The notes below the pieces were generated by a model, which saw only the letters and a program-made list of their open reading frames with translations, searched no databases and was not told where the DNA came from. A DNA stretch of 39,185 bases from a virus: the UHGV virus genome UHGV-1491546. One strand, written 5' to 3'. The number at the start of each line of letters is the position of its first letter. Positions within the stretch are counted from its first letter, which is position 1. The translations under genes were made by a program, and so were the position numbers. Shown piece after piece: positions 33,385 to 34,285 of the stretch.

Positions 33385-33714
33385 CTATTTAATTCTCTTT
33401 TCAATGGCTGCAATTATTGCTTTTCCTGATGTTTCAGGAGATTTTGTAGCCATATAAGACGAAAAAATCATGTCGGTCATTCTTTCATAACTTACTATTT
33501 CCCACTTAGCCAATGCATGGGACAGTTTGTAGTTGTCATCAGTTAGTGCCCTTATGGAATTTTTTAAGTGTTTATTCTCTTCTGTTAATCGCGCAATTTT
33601 TGTATCAATTTCATGTGAGCGATCTAATTCCTTAACCTGTTTCTTGAGGGCAGCTAACCCTGCATATAGTACGCAACAGGATATCCCAAGAGCGAGTACG
33701 ACTATTTCTAACAC
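33385..33714 (-). CDS. membrane-anchored coiled-coil protein (sieA-slot gene)
   Basis: 109-aa ORF; GTG start with strong AAGGAGG SD; N-terminal TM helix then coiled coil; convergent with gp16. Confidence 0.55.
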   Translation of the reverse strand: MLEIVVLALGISCCVLYAGLAALKKQVKELDRSHEIDTKIARLTEENKHLKNSIRALTDDNYKLSHALAKWEIVSYERMTDMIFSSYMATKSPETSGKAIIAAIEKRIK

Positions 33715-33832
33715 ACCAACCTCCTTAGTTTTTCGCAGGATACCATGAAAAAAGTAAACATCTTTTGCCTACTTCACATTTGAATGGTTTGTCATTAGGA
33801 TGTTTCCGGTTTTTTCAAATATGGAAATTGAT

Positions 33833-34252
33833 ATGAAGAGGATTATCGGCGTTGTTGCTGGCGCTATATTGTTATCTGGGTGCGCAACTATTGTTGGTGA
33901 CGAAACACAGCTCGTGCAAGTGAACAGCAATCCTTCCGGTGCGAGCTTTAAAGTAAAAGACGAATCAGGCGTGATTGTTGCGCAAGGCAAGACCCCGCAA
34001 GGAGTAACTCTTGCCAAGTCAGATGGTAGTTATTTTGGCAAAAAGAGCTACCAGATCACTATGGAAAAGGATGGGTACGAACCAGTTACCCTGCCAATCA
34101 AAGCCAATGCTAATGGTTGGTATATTGGTGGAAACCTTGTGTTTGGTGGGTTAATTGGTTGGCTTGCTGTAGATCCTTTTAATGGTGGGATGTATACCTT
34201 GAAGCCAAAAGAGGCAAACGCATCTCTTATACCATCAACAAAGCAAGACTAA
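33833..34252 (+). CDS. lipoprotein (sieA-slot moron)
   Basis: From ATG 33833: MKRIIGVVAGAILLSGCATIV with lipobox LSGC; Gly-zipper-like segment GGNLVFGGLIGWLAV; track ORF begins at an upstream ATG 33800. Confidence 0.65.
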   Translation: MKRIIGVVAGAILLSGCATIVGDETQLVQVNSNPSGASFKVKDESGVIVAQGKTPQGVTLAKSDGSYFGKKSYQITMEKDGYEPVTLPIKANANGWYIGGNLVFGGLIGWLAVDPFNGGMYTLKPKEANASLIPSTKQD

Positions 34253-34260
34253 TAAATAGG

Positions 34261-34285
34261 ACCCACCTTCAGGTGGGTTTTTTGT
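34261..34285. terminator. rho-independent terminator after the lipoprotein gene (possibly bidirectional with mnt)
   Basis: ACCCACC-TTCA-GGTGGGT hairpin followed by TTTTTT; the mnt stop codon overlaps the loop. Confidence 0.7.

Follow-up and report, generated by a model that had tools for sequence, protein, structure and literature searches.

When a P22-like prophage does not carry sieA, what stands in the place of this exclusion gene, and could the replacement also act against other phages? This question is raised by UHGV virus genome UHGV-1491546, a stretch of 39,185 nucleotides (nt) that we call the window, and which is a P22-like Escherichia coli prophage. At the position that sieA occupies in P22, the window carries a minus-strand open reading frame (ORF) of 109 residues (ORF-A, 33385-33714) and, divergent from it, a plus-strand gene for a lipoprotein of 139 residues (33833-34252). 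A preliminary description, made from the sequence alone, proposed that the two proteins form a two-component module for superinfection exclusion or receptor masking. Our results point instead to two separate, independently transcribed morons in the hypervariable interval between gene 16 and immI, each of them a candidate for phage exclusion, a reading to which we assign a probability of about 0.5.

The region from gene 16 to the tailspike gene is known as the "ant moron" (Villafane et al. 2008, PMC2629481), of which ten types were found across sixteen genomes, the P22 version alone having been studied (PMC2629481). The sieA gene is present in 22 of 66 P22-like phages, the content of the others not being discussed in that survey (Leavitt et al. 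2024, PMC10883804). Two exclusion factors have been demonstrated at this locus elsewhere, the SieA protein of P22 (PMC10883804) and the antisense RNA STnc6030 of BTP1 (PMC7067206), so that treating the position as a known exclusion locus is reasonable. The sieA gene of P22 is a minus-strand gene that follows gene 16 immediately, 22 base pairs (bp) away from it, and ORF-A has the same orientation and is located 19 bp after gene 16. A tblastn search of the whole window with P22 SieA gave chance matches only (E≥4), and we agree with the preliminary description that sieA has been replaced here. The approximately 1.3 kb surrounding ORF-A and the lipoprotein gene are 100% identical to strain CFSAN004176.

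The similarity with P22 extends upstream of the coding sequence. ORF-A starts with GTG (33712-33714) and is preceded by a leader of 47 nt (33715-33761, minus strand) with the minus-strand sequence ATGTTTACTTTTTTCATGGTATCCTGCGAAAAACTAAGGAGGTTGGT. This leader holds the Shine-Dalgarno sequence AAGGAGG (plus-strand cctcctt, 33720-33726) and two -10-like elements, TTTCAT and TGgTATCCT. When the minus-strand upstream regions of P22 sieA, HK620 hkcB, epsilon34 gene 14, ST160 ORF-A, and the window's ORF-A are aligned, we observe a near-invariant block, ATGTT(T/A)ACTTTTTTCATGGTATCCTGCnnAAAACTAAGGAGGTTGG(T/C)GTG, and the similarity ends at the start codon, the coding sequences being unrelated. Since the leader is common to unrelated genes, the GTG start with AAGGAGG, which had been listed as a feature of ORF-A, is a property of the slot. 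In P22, 85 bp upstream of sieA suffice for single-copy exclusion (PMC10883804), and the window keeps the proximal 47 nt of this upstream region.

We scanned the leader pattern in the IMG/VR viral contigs, where it occurs in more than 119 contigs, and determined the cargo, i.e. complete ORFs of at least 30 residues located behind the leader, in the 80 contigs that were retrieved. Eleven unrelated cargo families are found: ORF-A (18 contigs), a secreted 129-residue protein (16), HkcB (12), SieA (8), membrane proteins of 62 (6), 106 (6), 75 (4), and 149 residues (3), secreted proteins of 99 (2) and 68 residues (1), and an apparently cytoplasmic 140-residue protein (1). An N-terminal signal peptide or membrane helix is found in ten of the eleven families, and SieA, with its role in exclusion, is the only cargo of known function. 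From these alignments, the sieA leader looks like a socket for the exchange of cassettes.

The C-terminal type of gp16 follows the cargo present in this socket. ORF-A is found with the gp16 type of the window (70-82% identity, a Klebsiella prophage included), HkcB with the HK620 type, and a lipoprotein of 161 or 171 residues with the type of prophage Gally, strain A35 being the one exception. This tracking may be plain linkage or functional matching.

ORF-A is predicted to be a bitopic membrane protein, composed of a transmembrane helix (residues ~3-23), a long coiled-coil helix, and a conserved C-terminal region of about 43 residues. Its sole hydrophobic segment is N-terminal (Kyte-Doolittle 2.43 over residues 4-22), and the AlphaFold model shows one long helix (residues 2-90) followed by a short one (residues 97-108), with a mean predicted local distance difference test (pLDDT) score of 84.7. 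The reading frame, its start signals, the membrane anchor, and the coiled coil listed in the preliminary description are thus all present. The residues MLE precede the transmembrane helix and KKQVKELDR follow it, and according to the positive-inside rule the C-terminal bulk of the protein would face the cytoplasm. There is no sequence similarity between ORF-A and SieA, and the SieA motif FxRYPxEAxxFNK is absent from ORF-A.

ORF-A matches phrog_8100 (E=1.4e-69). Its homologues form 14 clusters and, in P22-like prophages, are always found tail-to-tail after gene 16; ORF-A is also present in ST160, SE1, and eleven other Salmonella phage records, mostly without annotation. Residues ~70-107 hardly vary among Salmonella, E. 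coli, and Klebsiella, with the motif KWEIxSYExMTDMIFSSYMATKSPETSGxxIIAAIExR. Consistently, the ratio of nonsynonymous to synonymous substitution rates (dN/dS) indicates strong purifying selection on the C-terminal 43 codons (0.08), compared to about 1.0 in the N-terminal membrane and coiled-coil half, both values being based on small counts. The exact ORF-A protein is found on at least 1000 contigs, as is the exact lipoprotein, and these copies together with the dN/dS values rule out that either gene is a pseudogene or a remnant. Between ORF-A and gene 16 (33300-33385, minus strand), no convincing intrinsic terminator is found, so the transcript may continue into gene 16 as an antisense of its 3' end, as does STnc6030 in BTP1.

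Do ORF-A and the lipoprotein gene form a pair? In favor of the two-component envelope module of the preliminary description, working as a pair in exclusion or receptor masking, the genes are adjacent and divergent, have a common control region of 118 bp, are both predicted to encode envelope proteins, and recur together in Salmonella prophages and in some complete E. coli genomes. Their association in the viral contigs is nevertheless at the level expected by chance: among 77 informative IMG/VR contigs, the lipoprotein gene accompanies ORF-A in 5 of 16 cases and other cargos in 24 of 61 (Fisher test, odds ratio 0.70, p=0.77). In this sample, the partner of ORF-A across the slot is hkcC in seven cases, the lipoprotein in five, and something else in four, and the lipoprotein has five different cargo genes as partners. 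A search for the 868-bp interval in the 5426 complete genomes of E. coli found parts of it in 143, of which 10 have both genes and 133 just one, and the mosaic breakpoints cluster at the start codon of ORF-A. No phage record carries both genes. In P22-like prophages the neighbor of the lipoprotein gene can be HkcB, the secreted 129-residue protein, the 161/171-residue lipoprotein, small membrane proteins, or nothing, and in siphophage prophages the lipoprotein gene is present without ORF-A. The predicted compartments also differ, with ORF-A at the cytoplasmic face of the inner membrane and the lipoprotein in the periplasm or at the outer membrane. ORF-A and the lipoprotein gene are unrelated, independently assorting cassettes, not a pair, and a function that requires both of them appears very unlikely.

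A further comparison concerns SieA. The lipoprotein gene is found in none of 9 SieA loci and in 29 of 68 others (Fisher p=0.012, for contigs that are not phylogenetically independent). This pattern could reflect redundancy or simply lineage structure.

The lipoprotein gene has the borders of a self-contained cassette. On its left side, the plus-strand sequence ATGAAAAAAGTAAACAT (33745-33783) is a remnant of the start of hkcC, identified by comparison with P22 and HK620, which encodes MKKVN... and reaches a stop after 12 codons (MKKVNIFCLLHI*). The hkcC genes of P22 and HK620 begin with MKKVNIGNVPKM, and P22, HK620, and ST160 cease to align with the window after AACAT. Relative to these three phages, the remnant marks the left edge of the lipoprotein cassette, which took the place of hkcC. 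A consensus scan finds a sigma-70-like promoter (33773-33801, plus strand) composed of TTCACA, a spacer of 17 nt, and TAGGAT, with 9 of 12 consensus matches. Hexamers and spacing are kept in epsilon34, A35, and 160-11H1, the diverged upstream region of Gally and K56-43 has TTCACG-17-TAAGAT, and the -10 block TTAGGATGTTTCCG is kept also in a copy from a siphophage prophage. The conserved element TTCAC(A/G)-17-TA(G/A)GAT is probably the promoter of the lipoprotein gene, and we infer that it is active in the window. No match to a PhoP box at the right spacing was seen in this promoter by eye.

On the right side, an intrinsic terminator (34259-34285, plus strand) follows the gene, as stated in the preliminary description. 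Its hairpin (34259-34280) is continued by a T-run up to 34285 and has a folding energy of -14.5 kcal/mol (z=-3.1 against shuffled sequences), and a rho-independent terminator is annotated at the corresponding hairpin of epsilon34. The same hairpin read on the minus strand, which is the version listed by the terminator scan, has an energy of -12 kcal/mol. The hairpin lies across the stop codon of mnt, which is convergent with the lipoprotein gene, and can serve both directions. The GC content of the lipoprotein gene is 44.8%, close to that of its neighbors, compared to 37.0% for ORF-A, 33.9% for the intergenic region, and 47.1% for the window.

The encoded protein is the same as gp15 of epsilon34 (gene 15, 98% identity, with a dN/dS of 0.03 that indicates purifying selection), located in the "ant moron" of that phage (PMC2629481), and matches phrog_6823 (E=6e-86). 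An upstream ATG at 33800 was rejected as the start codon; homologues begin at the same MKK, which places the start at 33833. The N-terminus, MKRIIGVVAGAILLSG|CAT, has a positively charged n-region, a hydrophobic core, and the lipobox L-S-G-C (LLSG|C), giving a signal peptide of residues 1-16, Cys17, Ala at +2, and Thr at +3. The Cys is invariant in 32 homologues, and seven family members match LPAM_1. The protein is predicted to be lipid-modified at Cys17 and, having no Asp at +2, would be sorted to the outer membrane according to the Lol rule of E. coli. In the AlphaFold model, a confident β-sandwich (residues ~25-93) is followed by a low-confidence Gly-rich hydrophobic segment (residues 94-118) and a confident β-hairpin (residues 121-131). 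The Gly-rich segment (NGWYIGGNLVFGGLIGWLAVDPFNGGMY, residues 94-121), which the preliminary description had already singled out, shows the strongest conservation within the family and holds most of its invariant residues. It is unlikely to be a true transmembrane helix: its mean hydropathy is about 1.1 (hand calculation), outside the top Kyte-Doolittle windows, it contains Asn, Asp, and many Gly residues, and it is followed by a confident hairpin that leads the chain back to the sandwich. As predicted at the outset, both ORF-A and the lipoprotein thus have the features of envelope proteins.

Direct information on expression comes from prophage Gally of the Crohn's-associated E. coli strain LF82, which encodes an identical lipoprotein, GALLYPH_14. 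The published values (S1 Table of PMC9928086) are expressed as log2(fpkm+5), where fpkm is fragments per kilobase per million mapped reads, and samples B1/B6 are taken as Dulbecco's modified Eagle medium (DMEM) on the basis of the text of that paper. For GALLYPH_14, they are 6.2/4.8 in stationary lysogeny broth (LB), 9.8-10.5 in DMEM, 11.0 after 1 h in macrophages, and 9.4-9.5 after 6 h (PMC9928086). The three adjacent ejection genes have values of 3.4-4.1, 2.5-3.7, 2.3-4.0, and 2.5-4.2 in the same conditions, and the C2 repressor 8.9-9.9, 10.5-11.0, 12.0, and 11.2-11.3 (PMC9928086). In the uninduced lysogen, the lipoprotein transcript is thus about 100-fold above the adjacent ejection genes (PMC9928086 table), which indicates that it is transcribed independently of the late operon. 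The Bor lipoprotein of Perceval, another prophage of LF82, has a closely similar profile (PMC9928086 table).

The authors of that study state that Gally has no morons, using as criterion an expression 5-fold above background in LB (PMC9928086). In their table (LF82_138, LF82_139), GALLYPH_13 and GALLYPH_14 are 4.5-fold and 3.3-fold above the LB background, respectively, and both are far above the flanking late genes in the DMEM and macrophage samples; the lipoprotein gene was overlooked because it falls below the 5-fold LB cut-off. Its minus-strand neighbor in Gally is a different lipoprotein of 171 residues, which is also expressed. The upstream region of Gally has diverged from that of the window, whose copy is presumably expressed as well. 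The independent expression signals that had been attributed to the two genes can therefore be specified as a sieA-type leader for ORF-A and, for the lipoprotein gene, a promoter-like element and a terminator, together with the transcription in the Gally lysogen. With its variable presence among syntenic relatives, its own terminator, and the lysogenic expression of an identical copy, the lipoprotein cassette fits the moron as defined by Juhala and Hendrix.

The lipoprotein belongs to a very large family, for which a profile search retrieved 5358 cluster representatives at E≤1e-3. Scans of ORF-A and the lipoprotein against Pfam, NCBIfam, PADLOC, and PHROGs returned no functional family. For the lipoprotein family, there is no curated Pfam or NCBIfam family, a sequence profile search of the PDB gave nothing meaningful, and the weak matches obtained were to PEGA (PF08308), below the Pfam threshold, and to a Leptospira family of unknown function. 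Fold searches returned only generic sandwiches of the PEGA, CnaB, and transthyretin-like types. A literature search by accession, by PEGA domain and lipoprotein, and by moron and lipoprotein found no functional study.

Within the family, we distinguish long and short forms. Long forms (mature length ~151 residues) are standalone chromosomal genes of Halomonas, Chromohalobacter, Shewanella, Nitrosomonas, Mariprofundus, and others, and have a conserved tail, (D/N)GSISIVLLQDVPxxLRxxMxRIN, which is absent from all phage and enteric short forms. No conserved neighbor was found at 17 long-form loci, which precludes guilt by association. Photorhabdus copies have DPNK repeats in place of this tail, and Pasteurellaceae copies have Lys-rich tails. 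Short forms (mature length ~121 residues) occur in Enterobacterales and their phages, but also in non-phage islands of Erwiniaceae and relatives. Erwiniaceae bacterium CAU 1747, for instance, has a short-form lipoprotein gene and a 122-residue ORF with no phage genes detected nearby; the flanking genes are presumably sapB-like and sapC-like, as judged from their N-terminal sequences. This suggests that the short-form cassette moves outside phages too.

Among phages, the lipoprotein gene is present in 4 of 50,697 records, and it has entered phages other than those related to P22. HK97-like prophages of E. coli have a copy of 68% identity between the tail chaperone and tape-measure genes, with flanks orthologous to HK97 (gp13, 63%; N-terminus of the tape-measure protein H, 80%). 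This site is the slot of the exclusion moron gene 15 of HK97, the first named moron. A Proteus copy lies directly upstream of the tape-measure gene and a Pseudescherichia copy between I and J, so that the same gene is found at three different sites of siphophage tail operons, and the copies in other phage types have their own hairpin terminator.

The HK97-like E. coli prophages with the lipoprotein gene also carry a porin gene between M and L and, after L, genes for a ClpP-like protease, Arc/Mnt-type repressors, and a Bro-N/P22_AR_C antirepressor, a gene set that is an immI-like module within a siphophage tail operon. A ClpP-like gene also adjoins mnt in a Salmonella P22-like prophage.

How might these two proteins act? 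ORF-A, as one of at least 11 interchangeable cargos placed behind the leader, Shine-Dalgarno sequence, and GTG that drive P22 sieA, would be a single-pass inner-membrane protein, with its short N-terminus outside and its coiled-coil stalk and C-terminal ~43 residues on the cytoplasmic side. We hypothesize that it is made in the lysogen and hinders DNA delivery by incoming P22-like phages, as SieA or HK97 gp15 do. SieA (types A-C, PMC10883804) is similar to ORF-A in its slot, strand, distance to gene 16, 47-nt leader, Shine-Dalgarno sequence, GTG start, inner-membrane location (predicted for ORF-A), and presence in P22-like prophages, and differs from it by having three or four transmembrane helices and the motif that ORF-A lacks, compared to one helix and a coiled coil in ORF-A. 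HK97 gp15 is a YebO-like moron product for which exclusion was demonstrated (Cumby et al. 2012, summarized in PMC3594210); like ORF-A, it has a coiled coil after an N-terminal membrane helix, but this 62-residue inner-membrane protein is not homologous to ORF-A (hhalign probability 10%). HkcB of HK620 and gp14 of epsilon34 share the slot, leader, and overall architecture with ORF-A. There is no BLASTP match between ORF-A and HkcB, and a 67-residue N-terminal match (E=6e-6) with gp14, whose conserved C-terminal part is unrelated. From its position and by analogy with SieA and HK97 gp15, an action of ORF-A at the inner membrane against DNA delivery by P22-like phages is a serious possibility, somewhat short of even odds.

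The lipoprotein is encoded by a mobile cassette of putative promoter, gene, and terminator; it descends from the chromosomal family and lacks the C-terminal tail of the long forms. Transcribed from the repressed prophage, it would be exported, lipidated at Cys17, sorted to the outer membrane owing to Ala at +2, and would alter the periplasmic face of this membrane, thereby making it harder for other phages to enter, much as Cor (phi80, N15, HK022) or Llp (T5) do. These are small outer-membrane lipoproteins too, accessory and encoded within or near clusters of tail and receptor-binding genes. Homology with them was rejected, because the matches are limited to the signal peptide (phrog_1119, E=0.0034, residues 1-20; NF047972, E=0.19) and the mature lipoprotein, a β-sandwich of about 70 residues with the Gly-rich segment, is unrelated. 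The phages in which the lipoprotein gene is found have quite different receptors, so that it is not bound to a single one, FhuA for example. HK97 gp15, also without homology to the lipoprotein, offers a parallel in that it, too, goes back to a chromosomal family and has an altered C-terminus, and its gene occupies the gene 15 slot. The repeated capture of the lipoprotein gene into slots of exclusion genes and its absence from nine SieA contigs suggest a role in exclusion. We propose such a Cor/Llp-like action only tentatively, and it is more likely to be wrong than right.

The position of the lipoprotein gene would also be consistent with a late virion-operon gene serving the lytic cycle, for instance in lysis or in protecting progeny from adsorption to debris: it is on the late-operon strand between the ejection and tailspike genes, and inside tail operons in siphophages. 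T5 Llp has a dual role of this kind. Nevertheless, the excess of its transcript over the flanking late genes in uninduced Gally lysogens, the promoter-like element and terminator that surround the gene in every context, and its absence from most P22-like phages, showing that it is dispensable for growth, make a lytic role quite improbable. For ORF-A, the effector could be the minus-strand RNA, excluding homologous phages as an antisense to the 3' end of gene 16 in the way of STnc6030. At this very locus, the BTP1 RNA is complementary to the 3' end of the gene 16 homologue and gives exclusion (PMC7067206); there is also no convincing terminator between ORF-A and gene 16, and the gp16 type tracks the cargo. 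The optimal Shine-Dalgarno sequence of ORF-A, the low dN/dS of its C-terminal part, and the near-invariance of this part across three genera argue for a protein, and adjacency alone can explain the linkage with gp16, so that we consider the RNA an improbable effector, even if RNA and protein roles are compatible with each other.

A better-founded alternative is that the lipoprotein is, rather than an exclusion protein, a lysogenic-conversion factor that improves host fitness, for instance serum or complement resistance, envelope robustness, or survival in host-like conditions. Lambda Bor and plasmid TraT are outer-membrane lipoproteins that confer serum resistance, TraT also masking OmpA, and, like the lipoprotein, they are expressed from a repressed mobile element. 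In LF82, the Gally lipoprotein mirrors Bor in being low in stationary LB and rising about 20- to 60-fold in DMEM and macrophages. A family that is mainly chromosomal and widespread, with short forms in non-phage islands of Erwiniaceae and relatives, is also what a physiological role in the envelope would predict. On the other side, a Gally-cured strain survives in macrophages as the wild type does (PMC9928086), the lipoprotein has no sequence relation to Bor/Iss or TraT and no fold relation to Bor or TraT, and its phage copies are repeatedly in slots of proven exclusion genes (sieA region, HK97 gene 15). The lack of co-occurrence with SieA in nine loci, when kinship is ignored, would fit redundancy in exclusion. 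On balance, a host-fitness role is rather doubtful, though it deserves to be taken seriously, being almost as probable as the Cor/Llp-like action.

Several points also weigh against our reading of the two genes as morons that are candidates for exclusion. What links both proteins to exclusion is position and analogy, and the topology of ORF-A is based solely on the positive-inside rule. No sigma-70 promoter for ORF-A passed the consensus scan, and the window has lost the -35 element of the annotated PsieA of P22, as its place is taken by the beginning of the lipoprotein cassette. Among the PADLOC defense models, the lipoprotein has no match and ORF-A only a chance coiled-coil match (LmuB, E=0.0014). 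The alternative occupant of the lipoprotein slot, hkcC, encodes a protein that looks cytoplasmic (HExxH), which leaves this slot without an envelope theme, and the relatives of the lipoprotein are mostly standalone chromosomal genes of many Proteobacteria without phage context, indicating that the ancestral function was not anti-phage. The unchanged macrophage survival after Gally deletion has to be counted here as well. The preliminary description had itself named, as a result that would speak against an exclusion role, both genes being common morons of known unrelated function; both are indeed common morons, yet no unrelated function is known for either.

If the proposals for both proteins are brought together, the sieA leader would be an exchange socket for at least 11 unrelated envelope proteins, each blocking the DNA delivery of rival phages. 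ORF-A would be one of them, with a fast-evolving half resulting from an arms race with gp16 and gp20, and the lipoprotein would found an outer-membrane exclusion class, recruited from a housekeeping family by loss of the tail and directed against podophages and siphophages. We regard this combined scenario as unlikely in its entirety.

The rest of the locus has the gene order of a P22-like phage. The homologues of gene 20 (30112-31527) and gene 16 (31524-33365) are on the plus strand upstream of ORF-A, and the lipoprotein gene is followed by mnt (34269-34520, minus strand), arc (as listed ORF 34548-34772, plus strand), ant (34775-35743, plus strand), and the tailspike gene (from 35786, plus strand). 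The sar antisense RNA is intact (34773-34840, minus strand; Rfam, 92.8 bits), and face-to-face promoter-like sites between mnt and arc (34543-34576; 11/12 and 10/12 matches) are at the place of Pant and Pmnt in P22. Elsewhere in the window, we observe an int-alpA RNA match (16200-16266) and, at its end (39134-39185), a 3' tRNA fragment, probably an attachment site.

Both the locus and the kind of genes found here, i.e. prophage morons for envelope proteins, were already known, and we do not describe a new kind of system. What is added is a conserved socket with its repertoire of cargos and the recognition of the lipoprotein as a widely captured moron that is expressed in lysogens. The lipoprotein represents a very large family without a curated model, captured repeatedly by unrelated temperate phages, and its gene ranks with the most strongly transcribed ones in a prophage that is common in Crohn's-associated E. 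coli; even a negative outcome regarding exclusion would point to a role in host fitness. The socket repertoire offers about ten further candidate exclusion proteins. If either ORF-A or the lipoprotein excludes phages, the mechanisms understood for this locus, which are limited to SieA and one antisense RNA, would be joined by a new one.

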